Below, piece after piece: positions 4,641 to 64,000 of a stretch of DNA of 64,000 nucleotides. The position numbers were made by a program, and so were the translations under genes. The stretch lies in the NCBI GenBank assembly GCA_000004985.1, contig GG738928.1; one strand, written 5' to 3'. Below the pieces are notes generated by a model, which had not been told where the DNA came from, did not search any database, and saw nothing but the letters and a program-made list of their open reading frames with translations. Within the stretch, counting starts at the first letter, position 1. Every line of letters starts with the position of its first letter. This stretch comes from Naegleria gruberi (lineage: Eukaryota).

Positions 4641-4969
4641 TATTTACAAATTATTTATTTTCAATATTACAAAAACTGATAATCAATATCTGCGTTTTGA
4701 GAATAAAAATTAGATAGGATGCTTCACGCAAACAGAAGTCAGTGAAAAATGAGAGAACGTGTTTTTTCAAGAGAATTGAATAATTTTTCAGTTTTATTTG
4801 AAAACTATTAAGATTGGAGAAATCAAAAAAAACAAGAAAACGCTCTCAAATATGATAACCACCAAGATTTCAAATCTTAAAGCCAAAAAAAATAGCAATT
4901 ATCAAGAAAATTCCTACAGAAATAAAAAAAATCATATTCTTCGTTCCAATCTTTGAGTAACCTGGTAAT

Positions 4970-7828
4970 TCAATCTTCATTAATTCCAAATTGAAAGTCT
5001 TTTGAGGAACTATCTTTTGGTAGTGTGTCGAANNNNNNNNNNNNNNNNNNNNNNNNNNNNNNNNNNNNNNNNNNNNNNNNNNTTGAATATCTGAATAGGT
5101 TTGATAAAAATGTAGTATCACATGGACAACCACTGAGATTCAACTCATCCAGTGTCTGGAAGTACATGTACATAATATTAGAAAAAATTTTAGGAAATTC
5201 AATATTTGAAAGATCCAATGTTTTCAAACATGCAAATTCCTGTAAAAATGTTCTAAACGAATCACTGTAAATTGGATTGATATCTGTACTCATATCACCT
5301 GTTATATTGTTCAATTTGACATTCTCAATGGAAGGGGAATAACTCAATGAATGAGCAATTGAAAAAAGAGCAGGTGGTGACTTGTTTCCAGTGAATTTGA
5401 ATGTCTTCAGATTCTTCTTAGCTAGTAAGCTATCTCCAATTCTTTGTGTCCCTCTTTCTCCAATATCACAATGAGAAAGATCTAAATAGGTTAGATTAGG
5501 GCAGTTTTTCAATTTTTTCAAAAAATCGGCAAGATATGAGACACCGTTATCCCCAATCTTGTTGTTGCTAAAGTCTAATATTTTCAATGATGGAAAGTTA
5601 ATATAGAATGAAGAGAGATCTGATCCTGTAATCTTTGAATCATGAAATATCAAGCTCTCTATTAATGCTCTTCTAGAATAATCACTCTTAATAGAATAAA
5701 AGAATGTCTCAAAGTCTGCTCCTTTATCCTTTTCCTGATACTCGATATTCCAATGTTTGAGAATTATTGTACTAATTGGAAGGGATGATAATATTTTCGT
5801 CAAAACATCTTGGCAACCATTGAACCAACAAGTCTCCAAACATTTGCATTTAGAATATCTGCTAATCATTCCAGAAAGGAGAATGAAATTATTTCTTTCA
5901 GCCATTTCACGAAGAGTTCTGCTCATCGACTTTTGTAAATATAATTGCATCCATGCGTCTTTCATCTCCTTTAAATAGTAAGGAAGTTTTGAAATTCTCC
6001 ATTTTGAATTGCAAGCAATTTTCCATTCTTGTTCTGATGTAAGTTTTGGCAAATCTTCTAGAACTATGTGTTTTCTAAAATTTGTTGGAGGTTTTCCATG
6101 GTAGCCTTTTTGTAAACTACTCTGAATGCAGGATTTGAGTAGTTCAATAACACTATCATGAGTTTCAAATACATGGAGAGATGACATTTCATTCAGTAAC
6201 TTGAAGAAGGTTTTAAAGTCATTCATCTTTTCAATTTGGTTCAATTTTTCTATGAACGAATCTATGGATTGATAAGGCAATATTCCACAATTTTCATTCA
6301 TAAATTTAGAAATACTTTCAATAGAGTTAAAATCGGAAAAGATCTGGATAAAGTAAATGTGTAATGTGAGTTCTTTCAACCTCTTTCTGATACTTTTGAA
6401 AGAATAGGACACTCTGTCGTCATCAGTTACTTCAGCACATTGAAAATCTGCAATTTCCTTGTAGCTCTTCAAAATATTCTTAACATATCTTGTCAAGAAT
6501 TCTCTAACATAGATATCATACAAATCTTTCCAATCAAATTTTGAAAATGGAATTAGCATTACAAAGTTTAACAAATCTCCAACTTTTTCTTTTGATCTTT
6601 CTTCACTTCTAATAAAGGAATCAATAGAGCTATTAATCAATTCACTAATCTCTGGAATTTCCTTAATCGCCTCGATCATCAATCTGAAAAATCTCAAGCA
6701 AGCCATAAATGCATTGGTGGTCTTTTCTCTCTGATCAACCATTTGAAGCAAACAATTAGACATCAATCGAGGAAGAATTTCAATAACTTGTTCTGGTGAA
6801 AAATCTATCTTTTTCGAATGGGAACTGGACAAATTAGCTAATGAAGATTTGGTAACGTGAAGAACCTTCTTGATATGAATTTCATCATTTGTTTCTGTAA
6901 GGATTGGTATCCAGTGTGTAAATGAAGTTTTCTCTCTTGACATTCCTCTCACATTATAATTCATGAACGCTCTCAATGAAAGAATATCCAGAGAGCAATA
7001 TATAGAACATATTTCCAATGATTTTGCGTTTCTCTTTTTACAGTTAATTCCATAGCCAACAAGATCACTTGTTTTGGTAAAGAAGCAAACTGAATCTGAG
7101 TTGGCTAACACTTTCTCAACTTTACAATTCATTCTTTTGAAACCATCATCTTCCTCTCTAGATACAAATGGAGGAGAAGGTAAATGATTAGAATGGCCAA
7201 CTTTTCTATTAACATATGCTTTGGCATGTGACATTGACCATTCCTGAGCTGACAAGTATTCTTCCTTTTTTTCCTCAAAAGTCTTTGGATCCTGAATATT
7301 TGACAATACTCTAGTCACATCTGCTCCATCATATAAAAACGTTTGCAACTGCATCAAGATTGAATGAACAGAATAAATTGGTTTCCACTCCTCAAGAAAA
7401 TCCAAACAAATCCTATCAGAATCGACCACATTAGGATGTTCCATCCTCGTACACAATCGAATAGTGGGCGCCTCCATTGGATAATTCTCACTAAACTTGA
7501 TCACTGCATGAAAAACCACACCATCATACATGGTATCTGAATTTCCTCGAATATTTACGTGCCACATCATGAAATCCCTCTCATCATCCACCTGAAAATT
7601 CATCTCCCGATAAATATTCATTATTTTCAAATTATCGAGAGCCTTCTTCTTCTTGATCGGAGCTGGACATGCACTCACATGACTCAGTGGATTTTCTTGA
7701 ATGTATTTAAATTCGGAATATAATCTTTTCAAGGCTAAAATTGGAGAAGTTTTACAATGTTTGTAACTATTCGGATCTGAATTTGCTTTCGAACGTGCAT
7801 TGGGCTTGATCTTTTGGTGTTGAGACAT
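4970..7828 (-). CDS. Ubiquitin-conjugating enzyme (UBC/E2) domain fused to a C-terminal RNI-type leucine-rich-repeat domain
   Basis: 952-aa single exon. N-terminal UBC fold with HPNVVDSDRICLDFLEEWKP (HPN motif, catalytic Cys) and SILMQLQTFL. C-terminal LRRs (LKILDFSNNKIGDNGVSYLADFLKKLKNCPNLTYLDLSHCDIGERG…). A 50-N gap (5033-5082) lies 16 codons from the stop, so the C-terminus is incomplete. Confidence 0.7.
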   Translation of the reverse strand: MSQHQKIKPNARSKANSDPNSYKHCKTSPILALKRLYSEFKYIQENPLSHVSACPAPIKKKKALDNLKIMNIYREMNFQVDDERDFMMWHVNIRGNSDTMYDGVVFHAVIKFSENYPMEAPTIRLCTRMEHPNVVDSDRICLDFLEEWKPIYSVHSILMQLQTFLYDGADVTRVLSNIQDPKTFEEKKEEYLSAQEWSMSHAKAYVNRKVGHSNHLPSPPFVSREEDDGFKRMNCKVEKVLANSDSVCFFTKTSDLVGYGINCKKRNAKSLEICSIYCSLDILSLRAFMNYNVRGMSREKTSFTHWIPILTETNDEIHIKKVLHVTKSSLANLSSSHSKKIDFSPEQVIEILPRLMSNCLLQMVDQREKTTNAFMACLRFFRLMIEAIKEIPEISELINSSIDSFIRSEERSKEKVGDLLNFVMLIPFSKFDWKDLYDIYVREFLTRYVKNILKSYKEIADFQCAEVTDDDRVSYSFKSIRKRLKELTLHIYFIQIFSDFNSIESISKFMNENCGILPYQSIDSFIEKLNQIEKMNDFKTFFKLLNEMSSLHVFETHDSVIELLKSCIQSSLQKGYHGKPPTNFRKHIVLEDLPKLTSEQEWKIACNSKWRISKLPYYLKEMKDAWMQLYLQKSMSRTLREMAERNNFILLSGMISRYSKCKCLETCWFNGCQDVLTKILSSLPISTIILKHWNIEYQEKDKGADFETFFYSIKSDYSRRALIESLIFHDSKITGSDLSSFYINFPSLKILDFSNNKIGDNGVSYLADFLKKLKNCPNLTYLDLSHCDIGERGTQRIGDSLLAKKNLKTFKFTGNKSPPALFSIAHSLSYSPSIENVKLNNITGDMSTDINPIYSDSFRTFLQEFACLKTLDLSNIEFPKIFSNIMYMYFQTLDELNLSGCPCDTTFLSNLFRYSXXXXXXXXXXXXXXXXXFDTLPKDSSSKDFQFGINED
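5033..5082. other. Assembly gap (50 N)
   Basis: Run of n. Confidence 0.99.
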
Positions 7829-9349: not shown

Positions 9350-12300
9350 TTAAATCAATTTCGAATCATTCAACAAATTTTCTCTGGTTTTACCAGAATT
9401 TTCATAAAAAACAAACTCATCTGTTGTAGTAAATCTGGAAAAGGTATCATTCAAGTTGATAATAATCTGATCTTGTAGTGAGCTGATTGATTGTTGCAAT
9501 TTTTCATGGAATGCTTCTGGTATTTCCTTTTCATTCTTTGATTTCATTTCTTGATTGTTCTTGGCAGAGTTGACCAATTCACTAAGTGATTTTCTCATTT
9601 GTTTGAATTCGTTTCTAGTTTCGGATGGAATGTTAACTTCCTTAATGGAGCCACTTTCAATATAATTGGTAAATAATTCTTCAATCAATGAATTCACAGA
9701 GTCAATTCTGTCATTTGCTTTGATTAACTCTTGGAGTTGTTTCAGTTCCAAATATAAATGCAAGTTTTCTAATGAATATTCCTTTTTACAGAATGATTCG
9801 AATAGTTTCAGACCTTCTCTATTCGATAGTAATTGTTCCAATTCATCCTTTTCTTCATTACTCGATTGGTTTCTAAAATTCTTTTGTTTGATGAAATGAA
9901 CTAATCTCACAATAAGTGCAAATCCTCCAAATACCAACAAGTAACTAAACAAGTACAATATTTCAAATAGCAATGAAATTGAATCGTTCACTCTTGAATT
10001 TACATCACCTCTCTTGTAACTCAAACCTGACAATCCAATAATTTGTGAAATTACCAAAAATGTAAAGCAAACAATAAATAAAATCATTTCCACTCTAAAG
10101 TATAATGGAGTATCGAGTTGAATGAACCAATCATAAGCTCTCTTGATTGGAACTTTTGCCATTTTCTTGGCAGTTTCCTTATCAAACTTTTGTAAAGCTT
10201 CCTTGTTAAACGAAAGTGAACTATTTGATAAATTACTTGTTGATTTTTCATTACTATCCACAAGCATTTCAGATTCATTTCTAGAATTCAAAAGTGACAT
10301 GATCACATCTAACAAAATCAATGCACATATAAGAAATCCCAATGATAAAATCATAATTGTAAACGAAATTGAAACAATGTAAGAATATTCGATTCCTGTA
10401 ATGACACTCGTTCTCACAAGAATTACCCACAACGTCCAATACATTAGGTTCACGGTCATAAAGATTCCCATGATGGAAATCATTGCTCTTGTGGAGAGGA
10501 AAATTCTAATCACTCTCAAAATTTTGTCTCCCTTTTGGTACAATTGACTAGTTCTATCATTTTGGTTCAATGAGAATTTAATGGATAATCTATGATAGAA
10601 ATATTTGAGAATGTGAAATCTTGATGTCTGATACAAGTATGAAAACATTGCTGTCAAAGTCAAAGTGTTTACAATAATTGTAATAACATTCGAAACAATA
10701 TTCGATGCCAAATTACCATTTTCCAATTGAATCACCGTCGACTCTGTCAATCCCTCACTCTTCAATGATAATATCAACCCATTTCTAGTAGTATCCAACA
10801 AAATACTCCTCTGAACTATCAGAAATAGTCCACTTTCCACCACCAATGCAAACATTCCAATAAACGGAGTTACAAATCGACTCGCCAATGGTTGAGATTT
10901 TCGCATCACAATCAAGGCAACGAGAATTGAACTCGACAAGATGAAAAATAAAACACCAAATGAAATTTGTGCAATGTACAATTCGGATAATTGTTCGGCA
11001 GCCCTTAATGAATCAGTTGCGGTGTTATTAAGGGAGTTTTCGATAAAGGCAGCGAAGAGTGTGGTGTGCGTACATTTACAAATTAAATCTCCGTTTGATT
11101 GTAAAGTGGAAAGCGAGCAGCCGCTGGAATCCCATTGTAAAGTTGTTTCATTCCAGAATTTACAAGTGATTTGAGATGAATTGAGAGAATTGATTGTTTG
11201 ATTCAATATTGTAAAGTTAATTGAAATTGGTTGAGTCAATTCTGAAAGTGGTAATGTTTTACCTCCTAAATAAAGAGTGAAATCTTTAGAGTTGGTCAAT
11301 TGAGTTTGATTTGAAGTAAATAGAGGATTAGTATAGGTTATGAGTGATAATCCAACTTCCTTATTGTAGCCATCGTATTTTGTTAGAATGTAATCCGAAT
11401 CTAAACTAATGTCGGAGAATTTTTCTAATTTAGTGCTGTTAGAATTCTTAATAAATGTTGAAACTGTTACATTAATCAAATCTGATGAATAAACTGTGGA
11501 AATAATAGATTCGGATAATAATTTGACCGATTGCTGCAATAATAGAACAGATGTCAATTGAGTACAAGTATTCGAAACATTTGAGAAACCAAAAGAAAGT
11601 AAATTACTTGCACTTGTCAAGGTTGTTTGTAAATCAGAATCTGAAATTCTTTGCTTTGTAACGTAGCCAAGAGTTTCCTTTTCTTTTTTGTAAATTTCAT
11701 TAACTTGATTCAAATAATTTCCTAATTTGTCATTAATTGCTGTAGCAACCTCATTGGAAGAAGCTGATAAAGTAATTTGTTTCAGATTTTCCAAAGCAGT
11801 GGACGGATTGGAAATGTCAATTGTCATCTTATTGACAGACTCTACAAGTACTGAACTAGTTACTTCCTTTCTCAATTTTAAACTTGTATCATATGGAAAT
11901 ACAGTTGCAATACTACCCATTCTTGCTTTCAAAACTTCTGAAGAATCGTCCAAATTTGCACTAATCGAAACTGAACTAATCGATTGAGAATATTCAGTCC
12001 CCAACGCATCCAAACAAATTACAAACAATTCCAAACTTTGACTTGTAGCCAAACTTGTTTCATTCAAATAGGGAAGATACACAGAATCTCTTCCACTTGT
12101 CAAAAATTCTGAAATTCTAATCATTGAATTCTTAAATTTAAATCCAAAAGCAAATTTGAGAGGAGAAAGAAACAATCGACTCGCATTCGAATCTGTAAAA
12201 TTCCAAGCACCTACAACTTCCTCAATAATAAAACTTGTTTTCAGTGCAACACCTGACAATGGTTGAATATTAACAATTGCCATTGGATTTCGAATTGGTG

Positions 12301-13742
12301 GTGCGACGAGAATTACTTGTTGTGAAATGGCGATGATTTGATCCTTAATTGGCTTAATAAGGAGTGTGAAGGTGAGATTTCCAGAGGATTGGATGGTTGG
12401 TTGGATTTTGATGGAAATGATGGGATTGAAGGTCAATGTGAATAAGTTGGCGTTGTTTTTTGGTTTCGTCAAGATTCCAATAACATTTTCATCTGCTGAA
12501 ATAACTTCAGAACCAAACATGAATGAATATTTCAATGAAATGGTACAATTTGCAGTAGCACACTCATCCCTTGTTAATTTCAAATCTGAACTAGTTCTCA
12601 ATTCAACGCTCACAATATTGAAATCAACATTGTTTTTCACACCATTCACAAGTACTTGTGGAATTCCAATAGCATTCAGTGATCTTTCCACTAAAAGTGA
12701 ACAATCTATACCTAAATATCCTCCAGTACAAGTACAAAAGTCAGGTTGTAGACAATTGCCATTTCCAGAACAAACATTCGGTGAATTAGCCGAAACTCCA
12801 AAACAAATTGGAATGAAACAATTAGGTCCAGTATATCCAGGTGAACAAGTACAATTATTTGAAGAAGCACAAATACCATTTCCTGAACAAACTCTATTAT
12901 CATTTGCAGCAATTCCAAAACAACCAATCGAGCCACAATTATTTCCATAAAAACCTGGTTGACATTGACACTTGTTCATTTCAATGCATTCACCCCTTCC
13001 TGAGCAAACACTGCTACTGTTAGTACTCTCAATTCCAAAACACCAATTTGTAACACACATTGTTTTGAACTCATTCAAATAATAACCACTTTCACATGAT
13101 GGAGTTAGTGATCTAATTCTCTTTTTCAAAAATTCTGAAATATAAATTACACCACTTGTCTCATTAAATACTAAACCTCTTGCATCACTCACTGAACTAT
13201 CCAGAGCATCAGTGTTTTCATATGAAGTTGTGCTATTTCCAGCAATCATTGTAAGAGTTCCATTCTTGTCAATTCTGAAAATTCTTCCCTTATATGTTTC
13301 TGTTACAAAGACAGTTTCGTCCTTGGTAACGAATAAAGCACCACCTCCAATTGGGGAACCAGTGAATGCTAGTGTTGAAATATATCCAGTTTCGTTTATC
13401 ACTCTAACACCTTTCGTATCTGATAGGAAAATCTTTCCATTCCTAACAAAAATATCAAAAGGAGACTGAAGAATAGCACTAGTAGCTAGAACACCCTCTC
13501 CAGAATACGAAGAATCCAAATCACTTCCTGCTATTAATGAAATTATTCCATTCTTGACTAATCTAACTCTCGACTTGTCTATCAGGTAAAATTCATTCTC
13601 TGAAATTGCAAAGATTGAATTTGGACCTTTCAGAGCACTAAAAGCAGATCCATTTTCAGTGAAGGAAGACAAGGAGAAATCAGAATAGTTTCCAGCAACT
13701 GTGGAGACGAAACTATTCGGCCAATCACGAAGAGAAAGTTTT
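9350..13742 (-). CDS. Adhesion-GPCR-like 7TM-RGS protein, exon 2 of 2
   Basis: Acceptor TTGTCAG at 13743-13749 gives an 89-nt intron (13743-13831) and an in-frame join (…FYVDR|KLSLRDWPNSF…). The track ORF 9350..13672 starts at a TTG. Domain order: NHL-type repeats; about 4 EGF-like Cys modules (CSGRGECIEMNKCQCQPGFYGNNC…); long S/T-rich stalk; GPS-like motif CKFWNETTLQWDSSGCS…LICKCTHTTLFAAF; seven hydrophobic helices; C-terminal RGS domain (FESFCKKEYSLENLHLYLELKQLQEL…EELFTNYIESGSIKEVNIP). Confidence 0.75.
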
Positions 13743-22414: not shown

Positions 22415-23893
22415 TTATATAGCCTCAATTAAATGATAATTCTTCTTTCCTAATCTCAATACAGCAATTGATCCATTACCTGCCACAAGATCAGCTTCTG
22501 TCATGACATATTTTGGATCTATTTGTCTCTTGTAATTAATGTAAAAACCTCCACTCTTGATCAATTTACCCAATTCAGATTTGGATGGTCCAAGCTTGAG
22601 AGCTAAAGCAATATCTATAATTGGCTTAGATAAAAGATCTTCCTTTGGTACTTGTCCACCAACAGAATCCTTCATTAGTGATGTAATATCTTTCTTTGAT
22701 AAGGTCTTTAAAATTTCAATTGCTTCCTCACTGCTAGCTCCAAATAATAAATTTGTACATTTTTGTACCTTTTCCAATTGTTCCTTTCCGTGAATTTGTG
22801 TTGTTAATTCTTCAGCAAGTCTTTGTTGAGCAATTCTCTTTTCTGGTTGCTGATTGTGTTCTTGTAAGATTTGGTCAATATCTTCCAAGCTAACAAATGT
22901 TAACATTTTCAATAATTTCTCCACATCAGCATCTTGAACTCTGAGGAAATATTGATAAAAATCAAAGACAGAAGTCATTTCAGGATTGAGCCAGACAGCA
23001 TTACCCATAGATTTACCAAATTTAACTCCATCAGCAGTTGTGAGTAAAGGAATTGTCATACCACTGCATACTGATTGACAACTTTCTGGCATGGCTGTTT
23101 GCTTTTTCTTTATGAATTCCAATCCACTTGTAATATTTCCCCATTGATCAGATCCTCCAATTTGAAGTCTTACGTTATTTGAGTTCAATAAATGGAAAAA
23201 ATCATAACTTTGGAAAAGTGAGTAGGAAAATTCAGTAAAAGTCATACCACCATTATCAGCATCAGCATTTTCAACTCTAGATTTAACACTGTCCAATCTT
23301 AACATGTTAGCAATTTGGAAATATTTTCCAACATTTCTCAATAAATCAATCATTTTCATTTCTCCCAACCAATCAGCATTATTGACAACTGTGACATTGT
23401 TCTTAGAGGAGAAGAAAGAATTCATTTCTCTCTTCAATCCTTCAATATTATTATTAATTGTTGATTCATCCAAGAGAGGTCTCTCTGTTTTTCTGCCACT
23501 TGGATCACCAATTCTACCAGTTGCACCACCAACAAGACAATAAATATGAACATTCTTTGGATTAAAAGCCAATTGGAATCTCTTCAAAGTTTGAAGAACA
23601 AGCAAATTGCCAACATGAAGCCCCGAAGCTGTAGGATCAAAACCAGCATAAATACCAATAGACTTGGCCAATTCACTACCACTGTTCATTTCTTGCATTA
23701 AATTATCAAATCCCGAAGTAGCATCATTATAAATTCCTCTCTTTTTTAAATCGGAAATAAATTCATTATTATTTGATGATGAAGTTTGATTAAATCTCCT
23801 TTGAATATTGTTTCCTCCGATTAAATACTTTCTGTTCTTTAAAAAAAGGCCCGAGTCAACAAGGCTTGTTTGACGAAGAAGGCTTCGTTGCAT
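22415..23893 (-). CDS. Tyrosyl-tRNA synthetase, mitochondrial (bacterial-type class I TyrRS)
   Basis: N-terminal presequence-like MQRSLLRQTSLV. HIGH-type motif GLHVGNL, KMSKS-type KFGKS, C-terminal S4-like domain. 492-aa single exon. Confidence 0.85.
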   Translation of the reverse strand: MQRSLLRQTSLVDSGLFLKNRKYLIGGNNIQRRFNQTSSSNNNEFISDLKKRGIYNDATSGFDNLMQEMNSGSELAKSIGIYAGFDPTASGLHVGNLLVLQTLKRFQLAFNPKNVHIYCLVGGATGRIGDPSGRKTERPLLDESTINNNIEGLKREMNSFFSSKNNVTVVNNADWLGEMKMIDLLRNVGKYFQIANMLRLDSVKSRVENADADNGGMTFTEFSYSLFQSYDFFHLLNSNNVRLQIGGSDQWGNITSGLEFIKKKQTAMPESCQSVCSGMTIPLLTTADGVKFGKSMGNAVWLNPEMTSVFDFYQYFLRVQDADVEKLLKMLTFVSLEDIDQILQEHNQQPEKRIAQQRLAEELTTQIHGKEQLEKVQKCTNLLFGASSEEAIEILKTLSKKDITSLMKDSVGGQVPKEDLLSKPIIDIALALKLGPSKSELGKLIKSGGFYINYKRQIDPKYVMTEADLVAGNGSIAVLRLGKKNYHLIEAI

Positions 23894-29732: not shown

Positions 29733-31778
29733 ATGCCTTTAAATGCATCGAATGTATCCAACAGAAGTAAGGATGATGTGATCATCGAGGATGGGTATAC
29801 AGCATCTTCATCGTTATCGTCATCCTCATTATCGTTATTAAGGGCAGGTGATAGTAAAAGCTGCAGTAGCTGTTCAATAGAAGCAGCAACTCCATGGAAA
29901 CAAGATACATCCTCATCATCAACATCAGATGACTTCATAATTCCTATTCGGAATGGTAGGAGCAACTCTCGCCAATTCATAAAAACACCATCCTTTTCAT
30001 CCCTTTCAACAATAATAGATTCTTCACTTCCATCAACGCCTAAATCATTGCCTTCATCACCATCATCATTACAAAATCATCAAGAAGGAACAGAACCACC
30101 TCTTACTGATACTCTCCTAGTTAAATCGATGAGCGAATGTAAGAATGACATGGAGAGGGGCATGTTGAACATGTTGGCTGATAAGAAGAATCTTCAGAGA
30201 TTGGTCGGAATTCTCTTCATCTTTGCCACTCTACAAAGTGTTCAACAAATGACACTCTATGAAAATTTATTGAATATTGCCTTTTTCCTTGTTCAGTGCC
30301 TTAATAATTATTTAAGACAAACTAATAATGATACAGCTCTCACCTATGAGGAATCATTCAAACATTTGGATAAAAGAGAAATTATAAGAACTGTTTTTTC
30401 AATGGTCATGTACACTTTGAGAATGATGTATCTTCCCAAACACAAGATGATTTTCCTTCCAGTGCTTTTTATTTGGTTTGCAGGAGCTAACAAACTATAT
30501 ATCTACTCTACATTTTGGGGATTACTACCCACTTACTATGCTTCAGTGATGTATATATCGTTGGCTTGCTATTTTGGATTTTATGAATTGTTAGAGAATG
30601 GGTACACTGAGACATTTCTAAATTTAATGATGGATTACTTTATTTTGGTGGCTGTGGTGTGGATGTGGACATATTATCTGGTTAATGTAACTGGATTCTT
30701 GAAACACAAAGTGGACAAACTGAAGGAAACAAGGAAACGTTTGGAAAGTGCTTTGGAAGCACGAAGTAGATTCATTGCACATGTGAGTCATGAATTCCGT
30801 TGTCCAATCATGTCCAGCATTGGGTGTTTAGAATTGTTGAAAGAAACTCCTCTGAATGAGAAACAAAATGATCTCGTAGATACAATAGTTTCATCGAATA
30901 GTGTCATTCTTCTATTGATTGAAGACATTTTACAAATTGTTAAAATTGAACATGAAAGTAAGGGTGCAAAGAAGGAAGATACAAATATTCAACCTTTCAA
31001 TATTTTCGAATCATTGAAATCGCTGAAAGGAATAATTTCTGGTTATGCTTCGAATTTTAAGGTTAAGCTTAATTTGGAAATTGATGAAGGAATTAAGAAC
31101 TTGACAGTTTTATCAAATCCTTCAAAGATCCATCAAATACTTTCTAATTTGCTGACGAATGCAGTGAAAGCATCAAAGAAAGATGATGATGTTTGGCTTA
31201 AATGCAATATTTTGGAAAAGAAAGATGATGAAACTGTAAAGATTAGATTTACTTGTCAAGATTTTGGATGTGGAATTCCTCCTAATTTGTTGGAATCTAT
31301 ATTTGAACCCTTTGTACAATTGCAAAATAATTCACAATCAAAAGTACCTAGCTCTGGGCTAGGATTGACTACAGTATCTCATTTAATCAAGACATTGAAT
31401 GGAACTATTAACGTTGAATCACAGGTTGGAATAGGAAGCTCATTTACAGTTGACTTGGCTTTTAAAATTGTTCCAAACGAGGTAAAATATAAAGTTCAAG
31501 AAAATGTTGTTGTAGAAGAAAAGAGATCGAAACTACACTTGAACGTTCACAAGAATTACTTGAACCTGATGTCACATTTAGAAGAAGGTGAAAAGGAAAT
31601 GGAAGAAACTCCAAAATTCAATTCCAATGTTTTGATAGCTGAAGATAATCCAATCAATAGAAAAGTTATTGTAAAGATGATTAATAGTATGGGAAGTGAA
31701 ACTGATTTTGTTTGTGATGGAAAGGAATTGGTTGAAAAGTTTAATCCAAGCACTCACAAAGTTGTATTTACTGATATG
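29733..31778 (+). CDS. Hybrid histidine kinase, exon 1 of 2 (S/T-rich N-terminus, multi-TM sensor region, HisKA, HATPase_c, first half of receiver)
   Basis: H-box FIAHVSHEFRCPIMS. N-box LLTNAVKAS, G1 DFGCGI, G2 SGLGLT. Receiver start VLIAEDNPINRKV…VVFTDM. At least 5 hydrophobic helices lie between residues 200 and 330. Donor ATG|GTAGGT. Confidence 0.85.
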
Positions 31779-31824
31779 GTAGGTAGCTCAAATTTCGTTT
31801 TTTAAGGTCTAATAACAATAATAG

Positions 31825-35648: not shown

Positions 35649-36725
35649 TTAGTGTCTTGGACCGTAGTCTCTACTGTCTCTAGGACGAGATTCAAACTCA
35701 TTACGAGATGATCCTTGATTGTTGTTCTTATTTGAATCATTGGTTGTTCTTCCATATGAAGGTCTATCAGAATAATTTCCATAAGATTGATGTCTGTCAT
35801 AATATGCTCCTCCTCTATTGTTGTTGTTATTGTAAGAACGAGGTGGTGGAATTTCAATTTGATTTGAATTATCAGACACTCTACCATAAGAAGATGTTGG
35901 ACCATAATAGGATGAAGAATTATTTCTTGAATCAACTCTTCCATAGTGAGGTGAATTATTTTGTGGAGGAGGGTAAGGTTGATATCTATTATTATTATTG
36001 TTGGAATAGTGATAATCACGAGTTGATCGTGGATTTCTGTATGGTGATGATGGCCTAGAAGATGACGATCCATATCGATCTCGATCATCTCGGAATGGAG
36101 GAGAAGGTGGAGAATAATTATCAGAGTGACGATGATGATCTGATCCATTGTTTCCTCCACGATGATAGTCATTATTATAGGATGATGATCTGCTACTATC
36201 ACGATCATTATCATAAGATCTTCTACCAGACATTGAACCTCCTCCTCTTGGTTCTCTTCCACCTCTTGGTCCTCGTTTCTTTAGCATCTTTATATAATCA
36301 TCTCTCTTCATACCACCATCTTTTCCTCTTCCGTATTGTCTCCCTTCTACGAAACCTGTATCGATGGCAATTTTAAGAGCACGATTATTTAATTTACATC
36401 CTCTACAATATTTAACGCATTCCTCTGCATCGGATCTGTGATAGAACTCAACAAAACAAAATCCACAAGGTGTTAACGTATTTCTATTTAAACCCATTAC
36501 AACTCGCTTAACTTCTCCACATTTTTCAAACAATTCGTATATTTGCTCCTCCTTGGTATAAAAACTTAGATTTTCTACATAGATTGTTGAAGATTGAGAA
36601 AGTGCCCTCTCGAAATCCTCTTCATTTCCGCCCTCATTTACATAGTGTTTTAATAAATATTCATATTCTCTCTTGCTTCCGTGAAAAAATTTTAAAGGAT
36701 GATGAGCTTCGAGAAGATGAGCCAT
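35649..36725 (-). CDS. Nuclear cap-binding protein subunit 2 (CBP20/NCBP2) with long RG/RS/Tyr-rich C-terminal tail
   Basis: [61 protein letters not shown]…[20 protein letters not shown] is the CBP20 RRM almost motif for motif. The track start at 36788 is a GTG; the real start is ATG at 36725 (AAAAAAAATGGCT; MAHLLEA…). Confidence 0.85.
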
Positions 36726-37056
36726 TTTTTTTGTATCTAAATTTTTATTCTTCCCCTTCAACATTAATTCATCGAGCCTTCTTTGCACAAAGGAATATCA
36801 ACACCACAAACATAGCTTAGCATAGCAGACAAAGAGGCTTTGACAGAGTTGTGGATTCTTTGCCATCACCCTTGACTAGACATGGTACAAGAAAACATTT
36901 TGCACAACATTGGAATGCCCTTTGAAATGAATTATCATAACATACACACCATTAATACCTTACTGCCCTCTTATTGTGACAGGTCCATTTATCTATTGTT
37001 TATTGTCACAGCACAGTATGAGGACACAGTAATGAATTAACATCTTCTTTTAAAAA

Positions 37057-40000
37057 ATGCCTCAAGATAGAAGGGCCAACCTCTTGCTCTTGATTATCAC
37101 AGTTATTTTGTGTTTCGCAGCAACGGCCGACTTGTCTAAGGGAATTTTAACGGAGGCAGAATATCAAACCTACATCTCCAATTCATGCCCTTCTAAGCCT
37201 CTCTCCACTGATGCTTGGTACTCTGAGGAAAGTAACTTGATAAATATTATTCTTGCGGGTGATAATTCAAAGCTTCCTCTGATCTACCCTCAGGAGTATT
37301 CGACGAATAACACTATTGTAAGGGATGATATTCTCAATACAACTACAACAAGCAACTCTTCACCAGCAACAACAATATTACAATCAGGAAACAATACAAC
37401 AGTGAACAACTCCTCCTCAACAAGCAACACAACTATTACCATTATTCAAGGGTGGGATGATCTTCTCAAAGTTCTTAATGAGACTTTGAAACCCAACGCT
37501 ACCCTCGCTGATAACTCAACAAGTGGAAATAATAGTTCTCTAGGATCGAATGGTTCAATCATTTTTAATTCCACCAATTCACAAACAACTACTAATGGAA
37601 ATGTACCTCTGTTGAATACTACCCTTAACTCAACCACAAACTCTAGCCCTTCTGTTGGAACAAATACAACAAATACTCAGTTATCCTCCAATACAACCCC
37701 TAGTGTTATTTCGAATAGTACTGGTACAGCTTCGACAATCAATTCCACTAATGCTAACCTGAACACAGTGAATGGAACAAGCGGAAGTACAGAAATTGGT
37801 TCGACCTATGGATCCAACAGCACTTCTGGTCAAGGTAATAGCACAACCACGAACACGCCATTTGGTTCTAACTCTAATTCCATAGGATCAACAATAGTAA
37901 CTAACGGAACTGTTGCAGCCGGTGCAATTTCTAGTTCAACAGTAACCTCAAACGGTGGGTATGTTGGCTCCAATACCTCTGGTTCAATAAGCACAACTTC
38001 AACTGGATCTAATAGCCAAGGATTAGGATCTAGCTCCTCCACAAATGTCTCTGCTAATAATACTGCAACTGTTAGTGGACCTTCAAGTGGATTTAATTCT
38101 ACTTCTGGGGCAACTTCTGGGGCAAACAACGGTTCCGTTACAACAAGTACTGGAACAAATGGTCAATCAACTACTGGAACAAGCTTAGGATCGACCTCCT
38201 CTAATGGTTCAAACAGTGGTTCAACTAATGGAACAAATACAGGTTCCGTTTCCACAAGTACTGGAACAAGTGGTTCCTCTTCAAGTGTTTCAACAAACTC
38301 AGGATCAACAAGCTCTTCTAACTCTGGTTCAACTAATGGAGCAAACACCGGATCAATTGGCGTTTCTAACTCTGGATCTTCTATTGGAACAAATACTGGT
38401 TCTGGTTCAACAATCACTGGAACCAGTTCAGGTTCTTCAACTAGTTCTAACACCAATACAGGAAACAATAATGTCTCCAATTCTGGATTAAATGGTCAAG
38501 GAACAAATTCTACTTCAAGCTCCTCAGCTACTAACATTTCAGGTTCAAATAATACTGGATCAAGTAATCAAGGAAGTAATTCAGGATCCAGTTCTACTGG
38601 AACAAGTAGCACTTCAAGTACTGGATTAAATGGTAGCGTTTCTTCAGGTGGTTCTAACACTGGAACAAATGGAGTATCAAATAATGGATCAGCAACTGGC
38701 ATTGCTCCCAATGTCTCTGGAACAAGTGGTAGTTCCTCTTCAAGTGTTTCAAACACTGTCTCCTCAAACTCAGGTTCGAGTGCTAATAATACTTCAACTG
38801 TTAGTGGACCTTCAGCAGGATCTAATTCTACTTCTGGAACAACTTCTGGAGCAAACAGCGGTTCCGTTACAACAAGTACTGGAACAAACGGTCAATCAAA
38901 TTCTGGAGCTAGCTCAGGATCTACCTCCTCTGGCTCTTCAAGTGGTTCGAACAGTGGTCCTGGCTCTAATACTGGTACAAGTGATACTAATACAGGGTCA
39001 ACAAGCTCTTCTAACTCTGGTTCTTCGAGTGGAGCAAGTACTGGTTCAGGTTCTTCAACAAATTCTAACACTAATCCAGGAAACAACAATGTCTCCAATT
39101 CTGGATTAAATGGTCAAGGAACAAATTCTGCTTTAGGCTCCTCAGCTACTAACATTTCAGGAGCAAGTAATACTGGACAAGTTCTACATCTCAAGCTCTG
39201 GATTAAGTAATTCAGGATCCAGTTCTACTGGATCAAGTAGCACTTCAAGTACTGGATTAAATGGTGGCTCTTCTACAGGTGGTTCTAACACTGGAACAAA
39301 TGGAGTATCAAATAATGGATCAGCAACTGGCATTGCTCCCAATGTCTCTGGAACAAGTGGTAGTTCCTCTTCAAGTGTTTCAAACACTGTCTCCGCAAGC
39401 TCAGGTTCGAGTGCTAATACTTCAACTGTTAGTGGACCTTCAGCAGGATCTAATTCTACTTCTGGAACAACTTCTGGAGCAAACAGCGGTTCCGTTACAA
39501 CAAGTACTGGAACAAACGGTCAATCAAATTCTGGAGCTAGCTCAGGATCTACCTCCTTTGGCTCTTCAAGTGGTTCTACCAATGCTGGACCCAATTCTAG
39601 TAGTAATTCAACGGTCAGTGGTGGTTCTTCAAATGCATCTGGTTTTACAAGTACTGGACCGAATACTCAAGGTGGTTCATTATCTGACTCCTCAAATACT
39701 GGAACTGCTAGCACTCCAAGTGCTGGATTAAGTAGTGGATCTTCTTCAGGTGGTTCTAACACTGGGACAAATGGAGCATCAAATAATGTTTCTGGAACAA
39801 ATGGTGGTTCATCTTCTAGTGTAACAAACAGTGGTTCTGGTTCTAATACTGGTATTAATACTGGAACAATTGGCGTTTCTAACTCTGGATCTTCTATAGG
39901 AACTGGGGTAAATACTGGTGCTGGAGCAAGTTCAGGATCTTCAACAAATTCTAACATCAATACAGGAACCAATAGTGTCTCCAATTCTGGATTAAATGGT

Positions 40001-42713
40001 CAAGGAACAAATTCTACTTCAAGCTCCTCAGCTACTAACATTTCAGGTTCAAGTTATACTGGTACAGGAGGTACTACCTCTTCAAGTTCTGGATTAAGTG
40101 GTGGTTCTTCGTCAGGTAATGCTATTACTGGATCAACAACTGGCAACACTGCAAATGTCTATGGAGGAAATGGTGTTATCAATACAGGATCAACCAGCAC
40201 TGGAGCAAATACTGGTTTACCAAGCACAGGACCTTCAACTACTCAATCACTGGAACAATTGGTGTTATCAATTCAGGATCAACGAGCTCTTCTAACTCTG
40301 GATCTTCGCCTGGAGCAAATACTGGTTCTGGTACAACAATCACTGGAACTAGTTCAGGATCTTCAACAAATTCTAACACTAATACAGGAACCAATAGTGT
40401 ATCAGGTTCAAATACTAGTGGCTCTATCACAAGCCCATCCACTGTATCCACTAGCTCTTCTAACATTGGAACAAATACTGGTTCCGGTTCGAGTAATACT
40501 GGAACTTCTAGTAATGGATCAATTGTTTCAAATAGTGGCTCCACAAGTACTGAAACTACTAGCACCCCAAATACTGGATTAAATGGTGGTTTTTATTCAG
40601 GTGGTTCCAACACTGGAACAAATGGAGTATCAAATAATGAATCAACAACTGGTATCACTACAAATGTTTCTGGAACAATTGGGGGTTCATCTTCTAGTGT
40701 ATCAAATAGTGGTTCTGGTTCTAATACTGGTATTAATACTGGAACAATTGGCGCTTCTAACTCTGGATCTTCTATTGGAACAAATAATGGTTCTGGTTCA
40801 ACAATCACTGGAACCAGTTCAGGATCTTCAACTAGTTCTAACATCAATACAGGAAACAATAATGTCTCCAATTCTGGATTAAATGGTCAAGGAACAAATT
40901 CTACTTCAAGCTCTTCAGCTACTAACATTTCGGGTTCAAGTAATACTGGTACAGGAGGTACTACCTCTTCAAGTTCTGGATTAAGTGGTGGTTCTTCTTC
41001 TGGTGGTTCTAACACTGGAACAACTGAATCAACAATTGGCAACACTGCAAATGTCTATGGAGGAAATGGTGTTATCAATACAGGATCAACCATTTCTGGA
41101 ACAAACACTGGTTTACCAAGCACAGGAGCATCAACTACTTCAACAGGCAATCCTGGTTCTGGTTCAGCAAACACTGGAACCACTTCAAACGGTTCTACCA
41201 ATACAGGTACCACAATTAATAGTGGTTCAGGATCTACCAATACAGGTACCACAATTAATAGTGGTTCAGTATCTGGTTCTTCAACAGGTTTAAACAACTC
41301 TGGTTCTTCAACAAATAACAGTAGCTCAACAATTTCTACCACAACAAACCCAGCCACTTCCAGTGGTTCAGGATCTTCAACAAATTCTAACACTAATACA
41401 GGAAACAATAATGTCTCCAATTCTGGATCAAATGGTCAAGGAACAAATTCTGCTTCAAGCTCTTCAGCTACTAACATTTCAGGTTCAAATACTAGTGGTT
41501 CAAGCTCATCTTCTGGTTCTTCTAACACTGGAGCAAATACTGGATTAACAAGCACAGGACCATCCAATACTCCAACCAATAATGGGGGTTCCTCTAATTC
41601 TGGGTCAAGCTCTAGTGGAACTAGTGGTTCAACTTCAGTTATTTTTGGAGCAACAAGCTCCTCCAATCCTAACTCTGGCTCTAATACTGGTACAAGTGGT
41701 GATACCAATACAGGATCAACGAGCTCTTCTAACTCTGGATCTTCGACTGGGGCAAATACTGCTTCAAGCAATGCTGGATCAGGTACAAACAATGGAAACA
41801 ATGGATCAACAAGTTCAAATAGCAATTCAACAAGTTATAGTGCTCTTGATACTCTTCGTAAAGAAATAGAACGATTAGTTACAGATATTATTGGGCGACC
41901 TGATCCAAACCTGCCAACACCAGATCTTCAAAAAGGAATAGACACACTTAAAAATGACATTCTTGGTGTCAAACCTGCCTCACCGACTACTACTAGTCTA
42001 CCACCAACTCAACAAACTCTAACAGCTCAATTAACAACTCACCAACATCAAACAATAATGTTACAAAACCTTCTAACAATACAAACACAACCACAACCCT
42101 TAACGCCTCAAAAAGCACAACCCCAACAAGGAACTCAACCACTACTTCGACTAGTGTATCAACCACAACAACCGATAGTACTTCCAATGCTATTCAGTCA
42201 AGTAATAGAAACAACAATGCTGGAAGTCCAATCAGATGTAAACAGAAATGTCCTGTTAGGTATGAACAGAAAGTGTGTATAACCAAAAGAAAAACCAGTA
42301 GTTCTTCTTCTGTTGTTGCATCCAATATTGTTGCAGTCATGGCAGAGAACATTGCCACCATTAAGAATGGATCACCTGATGGGTTAATAATTGGTTTATC
42401 TGTTGCAGGAGGTGTGTTAGCAATTCTGTGTTGTACAGGATCGTCTATCATTGGATGTGTTCTGTACGCTAAGAGAAAGAGAAATAATTTCTGGAATCTT
42501 TATGAAGATAAAAATGTCAGAATGCTTATGGAGGGTCACATTGATGAAAGTGCATATGCAGATGTTGAATTAGAGGATGATGAAGAATTTGATCCACTAG
42601 AAGCAAAATCTTCTTACTCTGGCTCTAATGAAGATGATTTCAAGTTTGACGAAGAATCAGAAGAATCTTCAGAATCAGATAAACAAGAAGAAGAAATTGA
42701 ATTTGAATATTAA
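37057..42713 (+). CDS. Mucin-like type-I membrane glycoprotein (signal peptide, ~1700-aa Ser/Thr/Gly/Asn repeat region, TM helix, acidic cytoplasmic tail); reading frame broken at least 3 times
   Basis: Signal peptide MPQDRRANLLLLIITVILCFAATA. The S/T/G/N-rich frame runs 37057-39210, continues +1 from about 39190, shifts again near 40250 and again near 41995. The last segment encodes …CKQKCPVRYEQKVCITKRK, TM helix LIIGLSVAGGVLAILCCTGSSIIGCVLYA and an acidic tail ending EEEIEFEY with stop at 42711-42713. Each break looks like a 1-nt indel relative to neighbouring repeat copies. Confidence 0.6.
38040..41560 (+). repeat. Long imperfect tandem repeats (period about 640-730 bp, plus shorter internal periodicity) inside the mucin-like gene
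   Basis: The block …AATACTTCAACTGTTAGTGGACCTTCAGCAGGATCTAATTCTACTTCTGGAACAACTTCTGGAGCAAACAGCGGTTCCGTTACAACAAGTACTGGAACAAACGGTCAATCAAATTCTGGAGC recurs near 38050, 38780 and 39420. GTCTCCAATTCTGGATTAAATGGTCAAGGAACAAATTCT recurs near 38470, 39090, 39970, 40860 and 41410. Confidence 0.8.
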
Positions 42714-42836
42714 AAAACTAGTAATAAATTTAATATCAAATTATATGAGTTTTAATTCCTTAAATCGTTGGAGCGGGATTGAAAGCCATTGAAATAGAAA
42801 CACGAAAACTTCAGCTTGGAAACTAAAAATAAAAAA

Positions 42837-44150
42837 ATGTACAACAATAATAATAATTCATCCTTCTACTCTTCGGGTACAGGATTTGTACCACCAACTC
42901 AGGGTTATTCCTATCAACAACCTCCTCCTATCAATACACAACCTCCTATCAATAATATGAATTCATCTTTTTCCAATCTTCCAAAAACATCCTATTATTC
43001 AGGTACAACAACAACAACAACAGCAGATCAAGCACAAAGAATTAGACAATTACAAGCTGATTCTATAATTAAAAGATTTCATAATGCTAAAATTGTTTCT
43101 ACATTAGATAATAATGTACTTGATGTTCCTATTACATTAAAGAATGGACAACAAATTACTTTCCGTGTTTTAATGCAACAAGCCTTCCCACAACAACCAC
43201 CTCTAATTACTACTCTCTGTACAATTAAACATGCAAATGTTGATTTAAGTGGTTACGTTGTTCATCCACAATTAAGACAATGGACTCAACAATCAAGTCT
43301 TGGAGATGTTTTGACAATAGTTTTTAGAGATTTTATCAACACTCCTCCAAACTATATTTCTGATGAATTACCAAAGAATCATATCACAAAAACAACAGCA
43401 AATATTGGTATGATTACTCCTCCAATCGGATCTACTCCTCCTCCTGGTTTAAATCAAACATCTCCATTGATGTTTAATCAACCTCCAATTAATCAACCTC
43501 CAATGACAAGTTCAACTTATCCTCCAAATAATACAATTCCATCCATGACAAATCCAATGACTAATTCAATGACAAGTACTGTCCCAACAAATACTCAACC
43601 AACTTTCCAAGATTCCTCTTGTATGATTCCTTTACCAAATATTCCAACAAACTTTTCTGAAATTTCTTTACTTGAAGGAGTTGATGCCGTTCAAAAATTA
43701 CTTGATAGTGAAGAATTATTCAAGCAGTTTATTGAAAACTTATCATTTACAAGAGAAGCAAAGAATATTTATCAAGATTTGAGAAATGCCAATATGGATA
43801 TTGCCAAGAGAAGTGTAGAAAAAGATGAACAAATCAATAACACTCTCAAAGAACAAATTACTCAAAAAAAGGCAGAAGTTGACAGACTTTTGGATCAAGT
43901 TCAATTTTTACAAAATAAGCAACAACAACTTTCTCAAAGATATGCACCAACTCAATTATTAATTATGTTAAATGAAAAGATTGATGAAGTTGACAATGAA
44001 AGTGAACAAGTAGGAGATTTGTTCCTTGATAGTCCAACAGCTGAACCACATCAAGTGAAAGAATTTATTGACAAGTATTTGGAAAAGAGAACACTTTATT
44101 ACTTGAGAAGACAAAAACGTGATCGTTTCAAGGATACCTATATTAAATAA
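42837..44150 (+). CDS. VPS37-like ESCRT-I subunit (N-terminal UEV-like domain, C-terminal Mod(r) domain)
   Basis: Real ATG at 42837 (the track start is a TTG). UEV-like block VDLSGYVVHPQLRQWTQQSSLGDVLTIVFRDFINTPP. The C-terminal 150 aa form a coiled coil ending YLEKRTLYYLRRQKRD, typical of Mod(r). Q/P/N-rich linkers. Confidence 0.55.
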   Translation: MYNNNNNSSFYSSGTGFVPPTQGYSYQQPPPINTQPPINNMNSSFSNLPKTSYYSGTTTTTTADQAQRIRQLQADSIIKRFHNAKIVSTLDNNVLDVPITLKNGQQITFRVLMQQAFPQQPPLITTLCTIKHANVDLSGYVVHPQLRQWTQQSSLGDVLTIVFRDFINTPPNYISDELPKNHITKTTANIGMITPPIGSTPPPGLNQTSPLMFNQPPINQPPMTSSTYPPNNTIPSMTNPMTNSMTSTVPTNTQPTFQDSSCMIPLPNIPTNFSEISLLEGVDAVQKLLDSEELFKQFIENLSFTREAKNIYQDLRNANMDIAKRSVEKDEQINNTLKEQITQKKAEVDRLLDQVQFLQNKQQQLSQRYAPTQLLIMLNEKIDEVDNESEQVGDLFLDSPTAEPHQVKEFIDKYLEKRTLYYLRRQKRDRFKDTYIK

Positions 44151-63135: not shown

Positions 63136-63269
63136 ATATTTTAATATTTATAATTATAAATAAAAAAAAACAATTTAAATTATTAAATCATAATGTGTTT
63201 TAAATTGTTGTTGATGAAGAAGAATATTTCAAAAGTTTAAATTATTATTAAATAAATTATTAATCAATT

Positions 63270-64000
63270 TTATCGTTCATTTATTTGATCATCAGATTCA
63301 TAACCAGATAATTGATTTAATTGATTATTATTATTTGGAAGTATAATTTCATTTAAAATTGTATTTAATTGATATTTTAATTCATCTTTAAATTGTTGTT
63401 GATTTATAATATTTGAATTATTATTTAAATTATTATTTAAATTATTTAATTTAAATTCAATTAAATGATTTAAAATATTTTTTAAAAAAGCATGATCATT
63501 TCCATGTAAAGAAATAAATAAATTATTAAATAATTCTAATAAATTATTATTTAAATCAATATTACTATATATATTAATTAAAGTACGTAACCATAAATCT
63601 AATTCATCTTGAGATGAACAACTCCATTCACTAATTTCACCATTTATAGTTTTAATTTCAAATCTAAATTTTAAATCATTATTTTCATTTTGTAATCTTT
63701 TTATACTTGTTATACTATTTATATCTATTATATTATATTTGGAATTTGAATCATTTCTATAATATAATTTACTTCTTTTAATTTTAACTTTGGTTTTTTG
63801 ATATCCAATTCCATTTTTACGTTTTTTAAATAAATTCCTTTTAAATCATATTTAATTATATTTTCATTTTTTTTAAAATTATTAAAATTATTATTATTTA
63901 AATTATTACTATTTATATTATTATTATTTATATTAATAATTGTATTTCTTGTTTGTTGTAAATTATTATCACTAATAGTTTGTCTATGAGTATTAAATTC
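63270..64000 (-). CDS. PH-domain protein, 3' part (gene continues 5' beyond window end); absent from the ORF track; apparent 1-nt frameshift at an A6/T6 homopolymer near 63825-63830
   Basis: Minus-strand frame from about 63846 to stop 63270-63272 reads …FKKRKNGIGYQKTKVKIKRSKLYYRNDSN…EISEWSCSSQDELDLWLRTL… (PH-domain pattern with C-terminal helix Trp). It has no ATG, TTG or GTG, so it is not in the track. A different frame is open from 64000 down to 63745 (…NENIIKYDLKGIYLKN…). Adding one A in the run gives a continuous GIYLKKRKNGIGYQ…. Confidence 0.5.

Follow-up and report, generated by a model that had tools for sequence, protein, structure and literature searches.

Gene structure and domain organization of the locus

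A stretch of 64,000 nucleotides from Naegleria gruberi contig GG738928.1 (assembly GCA_000004985.1), referred to below as the window, carries on its minus strand an open reading frame (ORF, 4970..7828) in which an earlier note, written from the letters alone, had seen a ubiquitin-conjugating (UBC, E2) domain fused to leucine-rich repeats (LRRs). We analyzed this gene and its relatives computationally. From N- to C-terminus the encoded protein, hereafter the window protein, consists of a RAD6-like UBC domain, a linker, a domain of about 330 residues whose predicted fold resembles the hemiRING-UZI module of the ubiquitin ligase (E3) UBR4, and LRRs of the ribonuclease inhibitor (RNI) type, followed in full-length relatives by more LRRs and an RRM. 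All features are listed in Table 1.

The UBC domain is complete, as had been proposed. Pfam UQ_con (PF00179) matches residues 78-191 with an E value of 4.5e-25 (88.3 bits, against a cut-off of 27), and a phmmer search of the PDB returned RAD6/UBC2/UBE2A-B proteins as top matches (E 1e-19 to 1e-16), the best being 2aak/RAD6 (E 1e-19). In the same alignment the HPN motif and the catalytic cysteine are in register with those of UBE2A/B, Cys141 corresponding to C88, which settles in the affirmative the alignment check of the active-site cysteine that had been suggested; judged from these motifs, the domain looks catalytically competent. A Foldseek search with the full-length model yielded Rad6 and UbcH5 with target-normalised template modelling (TM) scores of 0.67-0.78. 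Among solved E2 structures the domain appears closest, by a small margin, to RAD6/UBE2A-B. RAD6 orthologues scored 73-60 bits in the single-sequence PDB search, as compared with 57 bits for UBE2D, and the top 14 matches of a family profile (A5, built from 20 diverse UBC domains of the family described below) were all RAD6/UBC2/UBE2A-B (113-109 bits, with UBE2D at 107 bits or less).

At the other end of the protein, the RNI-type LRRs of the earlier note are likewise borne out, so that both Pfam families expected there, UQ_con and LRR, were matched. LRR_6 was found with an E value of 3.3e-10 (39.7 bits, against a cut-off of 23.4), and the LRR region retrieved ribonuclease inhibitor (E 5e-13), followed by LRRC34 and NLRP proteins. 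In the model, residues 663-897 contain nine beta strands, spaced 24-38 residues apart (mostly 25-30). The repeats may act as the substrate receptor. In the Pfam scan no F-box was found in the window protein, and no UBR box was reported at E values up to 1.

The UBC domain contains a lysine-rich insertion of 24 residues (PIKKKKALDNLKIMNIYREMNFQV), placed between the strands beta1 and beta2, that is missing from 15 of 15 aligned relatives. Model confidence around it is low (residues 61-64 and 78-82). An intron was considered as an explanation. A GTGAGT (7678) and a TTTTCAG (ending at 7592) do frame an in-frame segment of 87 nt, but its removal by splicing would delete the residues VSACP, which align with a conserved beta1 motif (GVSGAP in RAD6), and there is no GT within the 24-residue insertion itself. 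For these two reasons the insertion was judged to be coding. The run KKKK within it might serve as a nuclear localisation signal.

The linker that follows is largely disordered in the model, with low confidence over residues 225-253. Just C-terminal of the UBC domain, 80 of 128 family members have a CxxCxH...PxP motif, regardless of what separates it from the middle domain and of how far away that domain is; this motif looks like a small zinc knuckle.

The middle domain is conserved, coupled to the UBC domain and similar in predicted fold to the UBR4 module

The roughly 500 residues that had been left unassigned between the UBC domain and the LRRs are not without identity, as they hold a conserved domain of about 330 residues (protein residues ~248-578) with a predicted fold like that of the UBR4 module. 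The first two relatives retrieved (P0001 and P0002) already aligned to query residues 240-580 in addition to the UBC domain. A hidden Markov model of 336 positions detects the middle domain in 142 collected proteins, and 129 of these also contain a UBC domain. Minimal proteins of 540-660 aa, such as Thecamonas trahens XP_013757273, consist of the UBC domain and the middle domain alone. Within the helical bundle of the middle domain, F405, E443, R447, S571, Y576 and H577 are invariant (alignment A4). At the sequence level the domain has no match in Pfam (17 middle domains searched, E up to 10), and no sequence relative was found in the PDB with either a single sequence or the family profile.

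Residues 240-600 were modelled from a family alignment of 71 sequences with no templates, which gave a mean predicted local distance difference test score (pLDDT) of 91.4 and a predicted TM score (pTM) of 0.88. In this model a beta-rich subdomain (residues ~248-335) precedes a bundle of about a dozen helices that ends near residue 577. Foldseek matched the model over its whole length to 8B5W (the UBR4 E3 module alone) and 8BTL_A with a probability of 1.00 and TM scores of 0.56-0.59; every other match has a probability of 0.14 or less. The model has counterparts of both subdomains of this fold, which is made up of a RING-like beta subdomain and an 11-helix bundle. The weights of AlphaFold2 are older than the UBR4-module structures of 2023, and the resemblance is therefore not recall of a template.

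The UBR4 E3 module, described in 2024 by Barnsby-Greer et al. (PMC10873205), combines a hemiRING with a single zinc (residues 4835-4948) and, packed against it, a bundle of 11 helices termed UZI (to residue 5183). The hemiRING is the part through which UBE2A/UBE2B is bound, with modest activation of E2~Ub, and an extra region beside it raises the affinity for the E2; similar modules were found only in UBR1-3 (PMC10873205). With 289 aligned residues, the match to our model exceeds the 235 residues of the UZI part, so that the beta subdomain contributes at least about 50 residues to it. UBR1 and UBR4 are RAD6-dependent ligases, and a RAD6-like E2 fused to a UBR-type module would thus be a coherent pair.

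The earlier note had read the protein as a single-chain E2 with a built-in substrate receptor. The part of this that holds is the presence of UBC domain and LRRs in one frame; what it misses is the E3-like module indicated by the UBR4 fold match. One could still suppose that the protein is an E2 with a receptor and nothing more, its UBC domain working with separate E3s or independently of any E3, its LRRs selecting targets and its middle domain serving as a spacer or scaffold. The confirmed UBC and LRR domains agree with this, as does the fact that the zinc ligands, the E2-contact residues and the sequence similarity that would tie the middle domain to UBR4 are all lacking. A spacer, however, would not be expected to retain a specific fold of 330 residues that uniquely matches an E2-docking module. 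Moreover, conservation across the family is stronger in the middle domain than in the LRRs, and the middle domain remains coupled to the UBC domain even in LRR-free proteins, including the minimal forms. We consider this explanation unlikely.

Table 1. Features of the E2-LRR gene and its surroundings in the window, listed in the direction of transcription.
Feature	Position	Strand	Basis and remarks
Readable part of the gene (residues 1-915, one exon, ends at the gap)	5084..7828	minus	ORF list; tblastn segments of P0003, P0004 and P0153; alignment A1
UBC (E2) domain, residues 28-204	7217..7747	minus	Pfam UQ_con; PDB phmmer; family profile A5; Foldseek
Lysine-rich 24-residue insertion, residues 57-80	7589..7660	minus	Alignment A1; translation
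Active site HPNVVDSDRIC: His131-Pro132-Asn133 and Cys141 (codon 7406..7408)	7406..7438	minus	Translation; UBE2A/B alignment
Linker, residues 205-247	7088..7216	minus	Alignment A1; degenerate CxxCxH...PxP remnant (YVNRKVGHS...PSPP)
Beta-rich N-terminal subdomain of the middle domain, residues 248-335, from invariant Cys248 (CFxTK)	6824..7087	minus	HemiRING-like by fold
All-helical bundle of the middle domain, residues 336-578, ending in invariant S..KGYH	6095..6823	minus	UZI-like by fold; model, fold match, alignment A4
Helical connector and LRR N-cap, residues 579-660, invariant Trp626	5849..6094	minus	Alignment A1; model helices 599-610, 625-645 and 651-657
RNI-type LRRs, residues 661-915, about nine repeats, cut by the gap	5084..5848	minus	Pfam LRR_6 and LRR_4; ribonuclease inhibitor match; strand spacing
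50-N assembly gap	5033..5082	.	Sequence; relatives of 1320-1420 aa with C-terminal RRM
Post-gap sequence	4870..5032	minus	ORF list; listed frame stops at 4970, another frame is open to 4870

A family of proteins in several protist lineages

Relatives were collected by an exhaustive HMMER search over 1.84 billion representative proteins, in which 43 matches had E values of 1e-30 or less. A word-indexed search, first with the protein and then with alignment A1, returned only P0001, P0002 and generic LRR proteins, and the family surfaced only by HMMER. The best relatives are 1320-1420 aa long and collinear with the window protein from the UBC domain through the LRRs. The top relative is Willaertia magna KAL9641706 (P0003; E 2e-106, query residues 81-899); others are Acrasis kona KAL0483244, Anaeramoeba ignava KAJ5071803 (from genome and, through EukProt, transcriptome), a Percolomonas protein with a complete ORF from an MMETSP transcriptome, and many metagenomic proteins. 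In Pfam terms their order is UQ_con, a long region without any family, many LRR_6 repeats and a C-terminal RRM, and their source annotations read 'ubiquitin conjugating enzyme E2', 'leucine rich repeat family protein' or 'ubiquitin-protein ligase/RanGAP...'. The named sources are Heterolobosea, Metamonada (Anaeramoeba), Amoebozoa (Pyxidicula and Soliformovum) and one apusomonad. The domain combination, which the earlier note did not recognise, is thus that of a conserved family in several protist lineages and not peculiar to this locus. The source of the DNA is a heterolobosean, not an amoebozoan. Scans of viral contigs with family member P0061 and of metagenome contigs with the window protein gave no relatives.

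The window protein retains all invariant residues of the family in alignment A1, among them W89, H107, Y116, P117, Q162, H212, P219, C248, G258, G260, E443, R447, Y576, H577 and W626. The catalytic cysteine is kept in about 116 of the 129 family members, and the strict HPN motif in 61.

Proteins that share the UBC and middle domains differ in what is added to them. In a survey of 50 such proteins, picked from those without the LRR arm, an F-box or F-box-like domain was present in 26, TerD in nine, S1 in four, SPRY, VWA and CCCH in two each, and WD40 and RRM in one each. In most LRR-free members (P0001, P0034, P0061, P0118 and others) the F-box or F-box-like domain lies directly before the CFxTK start of the middle domain, an arrangement that would place an E2 and an E3-like module on Skp1. 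Over the whole family, the target- or RNA-binding modules that recur on the core of UBC and middle domain are LRR plus RRM, F-box, SPRY, WD40, S1 and CCCH.

The reading frame ends in an assembly gap

The listed ORF has 952 codons, 17 of which are X, and includes an assembly gap of exactly 50 N. As 50 is not a multiple of 3, the frame past the gap, the stop at 4970 and the length of 952 residues are artefacts without meaning, and residues 1-915 are the only trustworthy protein sequence. With the relatives P0003, P0004 and P0153 as queries, tblastn produced one collinear high-scoring segment pair (7735..5132), consistent with a single exon. Of the uninterrupted 952-residue exon claimed previously, the single exon therefore stands and the length does not. 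Nor does the gap lie 16 codons from the stop; we count 20 in the listed ORF, and the stop itself is arbitrary. Complete, transcript-derived ORFs of relatives show a collinear single product, which speaks against a split of the locus into two genes.

In the 16-sequence alignment A1 the window protein ends at the gap and the others run on for about 400 residues, with further LRRs and an RRM. Because the collinear relatives carry these parts at that point, the gap probably hides at least about 1.2 kb of sequence coding for them. The C-terminus is thus incomplete, as had been noted, but the likely loss of some 400 residues reaches far beyond its extreme end. The alternative to a large hidden stretch is a truncated N. 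gruberi copy. No similarity was found between the family C-terminus (405 profile positions) and any of the three post-gap frames, and no trace of the missing LRRs and RRM was detected by tblastn elsewhere in the window, the family C-terminus giving only weak, generic LRR matches at 54.6-55.5 kb. The post-gap sequence may not belong to the E2-LRR gene and could instead be the end of a different gene that starts inside the gap. Its frame open to 4870 ends in a hydrophobic, tail-anchor-like segment (…NMIFFISVGIFLIIAIFFGFKI, followed by the stop). Look-ups of the exact products of four neighbouring ORFs, made in search of an annotated gene model, found no match.

These observations bear on whether the gene is functional at all. 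It might be a copy that is truncated or in decay, or a false join at the scaffold gap with foreign sequence behind it. Such a state would fit a frame that ends in 50 N, post-gap sequence unlike the family C-terminus with 330-390 bp left before the convergent neighbour, and the unusual insertion in the UBC domain; furthermore, protein searches returned no N. gruberi protein for the locus, though the database holds N. gruberi proteins. On the other hand, 915 codons run without a stop at 32% G+C, with every invariant family residue in place, assembly gaps of nominal size commonly conceal kilobases, and the missing database protein may reflect how the index was constructed. A non-functional gene is therefore very improbable.

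A putative single-chain E2-E3 ligase

The explanation that we favour, with a probability of roughly 0.55, is that the gene encodes a naturally occurring E2-E3 ligase in a single chain, equipped with an LRR(-RRM) arm and belonging to a sizeable protist family. It is based on the high-confidence predicted structure and on the coupling of the domains throughout the family. In such an enzyme, E1 would load ubiquitin onto Cys141, after which the tethered E3-like module would dock the charged E2, either that of its own chain (in cis) or that of another chain in an oligomer (in trans), and favour discharge, while the LRR(-RRM) arm would hold the target. The protein would then be a self-contained ligase with E2, E3 and receptor in one. 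E1 and RING-type E3s use overlapping surfaces of the E2, so the E2 would have to undock for recharging, the tether holding it at a high local concentration. The target would plausibly be an RNA-associated protein; the recurrence of RRM, S1 and CCCH domains on the core makes this a reasonable guess, but only a guess.

Several observations weigh against this explanation. Concerning the E2, the preference of the family profile for RAD6 is a margin of a few bits. The UBE2A residues that contact UBR4 (R7, R8, R11, R95 and S97) correspond to K34, R35, S38, E147 and K149 in the window protein, so that only Arg8 is kept among these recognition determinants. The CxxCxH motif behind the UBC domain has been lost here, both cysteines being gone (YVNRKVGHS) in the window protein and in its heterolobosean relatives. 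Concerning the middle domain, the C2HC zinc site of UBR4 (C4838, C4841, H4887 and C4890) is not conserved; the sole invariant Cys or His of the beta subdomain is Cys248, in ELxCFxTK, and no CxxC or HxxC pair is present. A link to UBR4 at the sequence level was sought with Pfam (E<=10), profile searches of the PDB, HMMER and hhalign, and none was found. For the last two, UBR4 residues 4828-4849 and 4872-4953 had been rebuilt from the mutagenesis primers in the supplement of PMC10873205; HMMER gave no match to these hemiRING fragments, and hhalign gave probabilities of 0.1-0.2%, which is the noise level. The full-length model has a pTM of 0.44, at which the arrangement of the domains relative to each other is not readable, and the C-terminal third of the protein is absent from the assembly. 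Finally, about 11 family members without the catalytic cysteine, mostly of the LRR-RRM branch (Anaeramoeba and others), still hold the middle domain, which fits a role of that domain not wholly dependent on an active fused E2.

Likenesses to UBR4 motifs that had been spotted by eye (LxC..[CT][RK]..[YF] and LPVW...LAR...CTG) were dropped, having no statistical support.

In view of these cautions, we call the middle domain UBR4-module-like in fold and do not file it as a hemiRING. Its docking of an E2, if any, would more closely resemble that of a zinc-free U-box.

The members without a catalytic cysteine raise a further explanation, in which the middle domain recruits a free RAD6-type E2 in trans and the fused UBC domain is either a second E2, with a division of labour between priming and chain extension, or an affinity or regulatory element. 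Support for it comes from the eleven Cys-less members, mostly of the LRR-RRM type, that keep the middle domain (among them P0006, P0009, P0011, P0018 and P0017 of Anaeramoeba), and from UBR4 itself, where the region next to the hemiRING raises E2 affinity (PMC10873205). As such an element the fused UBC domain would be comparable to the N-terminal region of the UBR4 module, and in some relatives it would be a dead pseudo-E2. About 90% of the family, including the window protein, nevertheless keep the cysteine, and an obligate coupling most simply means that the two domains work together. We consider recruitment of a free E2 unlikely. In alignment A1 loss of the cysteine usually goes together with loss of the asparagine of HPN (HPC..S/T/K or HPF..S in P0006, P0009, P0011, P0017 and P0018). 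These five proteins are pseudo-E2 versions of the same architecture; they keep the LRRs as well as the middle domain, and in most cases the RRM too.

Neighbouring genes and base composition

The window contains a second, unrelated gene with a UBC fold. Its ORF (42816-44150, plus strand) encodes a UEV-type UBC-like domain and Mod(r), the architecture of the ESCRT-I protein Vps23/TSG101. Two adjacent genes on the plus strand encode an RRM protein (51500-53956, 818 aa) and an LRR protein (54180-55502, 440 aa), the latter almost wholly composed of RNI-type LRRs (LRR_6, E 1.6e-53). The tblastn similarity of the LRR gene to the C-terminal LRRs of the family is weak (E 1e-5), and the gene is not the missing C-terminus of the E2-LRR protein.

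Upstream of the E2-LRR gene, a large ORF (9350-13672, minus strand) encodes NHL/teneurin-like EGF repeats, a GPS motif and, at the C-terminus, an RGS domain. Between the last two, long stretches of hydrophobic residues seen by eye suggest a multi-pass membrane region, and the whole suggests a receptor like the adhesion G protein-coupled receptors with a built-in RGS domain. The ORF at 29733-31805 (plus strand) encodes HisKA and HATPase_c domains, as in a bacterial-type histidine kinase. That at 22415-23893 (minus strand) encodes a tyrosyl-tRNA synthetase of the class I Tyr/Trp type, 100% identical to an N. gruberi protein, with 75% identity to N. lovaniensis and N. fowleri and 64% to Willaertia, which assigns the window to N. 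gruberi; among its more distant matches are enzymes of bacteria and fungal proteins named mitochondrial. The G+C content is 0.38-0.42 at 36001-42000, as compared with about 0.30-0.35 in other parts, and drops to 0.18 over the final 2 kb (62001-64000).

Significance and comparison with known systems

A literature search for an E2 fused to a UBR-type module, or to F-box, LRR, RRM or hemiRING domains, found no such fusion described, most subscription journals being outside its coverage. We tentatively propose, at somewhat less than even odds, that the family represents a widespread natural class of single-chain E2-E3 enzymes in free-living protists, made up of a RAD6-like E2, a zinc-poor relative of the hemiRING-UZI module and interchangeable target arms (LRR-RRM, F-box, SPRY, WD40, S1 or CCCH). 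Its range would extend over Heterolobosea, Anaeramoeba, Amoebozoa, apusomonads and many uncultured eukaryotes. If this were true, the UBR-type E3 module would be an ancient autonomous unit and not a peculiarity of giant N-degron ligases, and its origin would be pushed back in eukaryote evolution. The occurrence of the UBR4-module fold, fused to its kind of E2, in well over 100 divergent protist proteins would act as a 'Rosetta stone', giving independent support for the pairing of E2 and E3. The LRR-RRM branch, to which the window gene belongs, would steer ubiquitin to RNA-bound targets. The recurrence of RNA-binding domains on the core suggests that ubiquitination and RNA biology are connected in these organisms, a connection of which our search found no description. 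Mechanistic work would gain a natural E2-E3 unit of compact size, about 600 residues; UBR4, by comparison, is a protein of 574 kDa.

The closest known system is the UBR4 hemiRING-UZI module with UBE2A/UBE2B (8B5W and 8BTL; PMC10873205), in which the module is likewise partnered with a RAD6-like E2. As the window protein joins a RAD6-like UBC domain to a domain predicted to fold like the module that binds UBE2A/B, its two parts would be a cognate pair of a known kind, here fused. Unlike UBR4, it has E2 and module in one polypeptide, without UBR box or giant scaffold; there is no detectable sequence similarity, and neither the C2HC ligands nor the E2-side contacts Arg7, Arg11, Arg95 and Ser97 are conserved. 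The RING and cap-helical domain of yeast Ubr1 with Ubc2/Rad6 (7MEX and 7MEY) is a much weaker match. Ubr1 has a two-zinc RING and binds the backside of the E2 with a separate helix, whereas in the window protein the E2 is covalently tethered.

UBE2O and BIRC6 are large single-chain E2/E3 hybrids in which a UBC domain of another E2 clade, situated toward the C-terminus, is joined to target-binding regions and needs no separate E3. Neither is known to have a RING-like or UBR-type module. The window protein, on its part, has its best E2 matches in RAD6 and UBE2D, and no accessory-domain family of UBE2O or BIRC6 appeared in the Pfam scan.

With the FBXL receptors of SCF ligases the window protein shares an LRR solenoid as the presumed target arm. 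It differs from them in having no F-box, although many paralogous members of its family do carry one immediately N-terminal to the middle domain. The repeats of the window protein are of the RNI/NLR type by their matches, unlike those typical of FBXL proteins.

Lastly, covalent tethering of an E2 to an E3 is also found in E2-RING fusions engineered for structural work, such as UbcH5B-MIB1 RING3 (8V0D) and RING1B-UBE2D3 (4R8P), both of which are among the PDB matches of the UBC domain. In these artificial constructs the tethered partners are constitutively assembled, which shows that working assemblies can be obtained in this way. The protist family, if it acts as proposed, would be the natural and conserved counterpart of these hand-built fusions.

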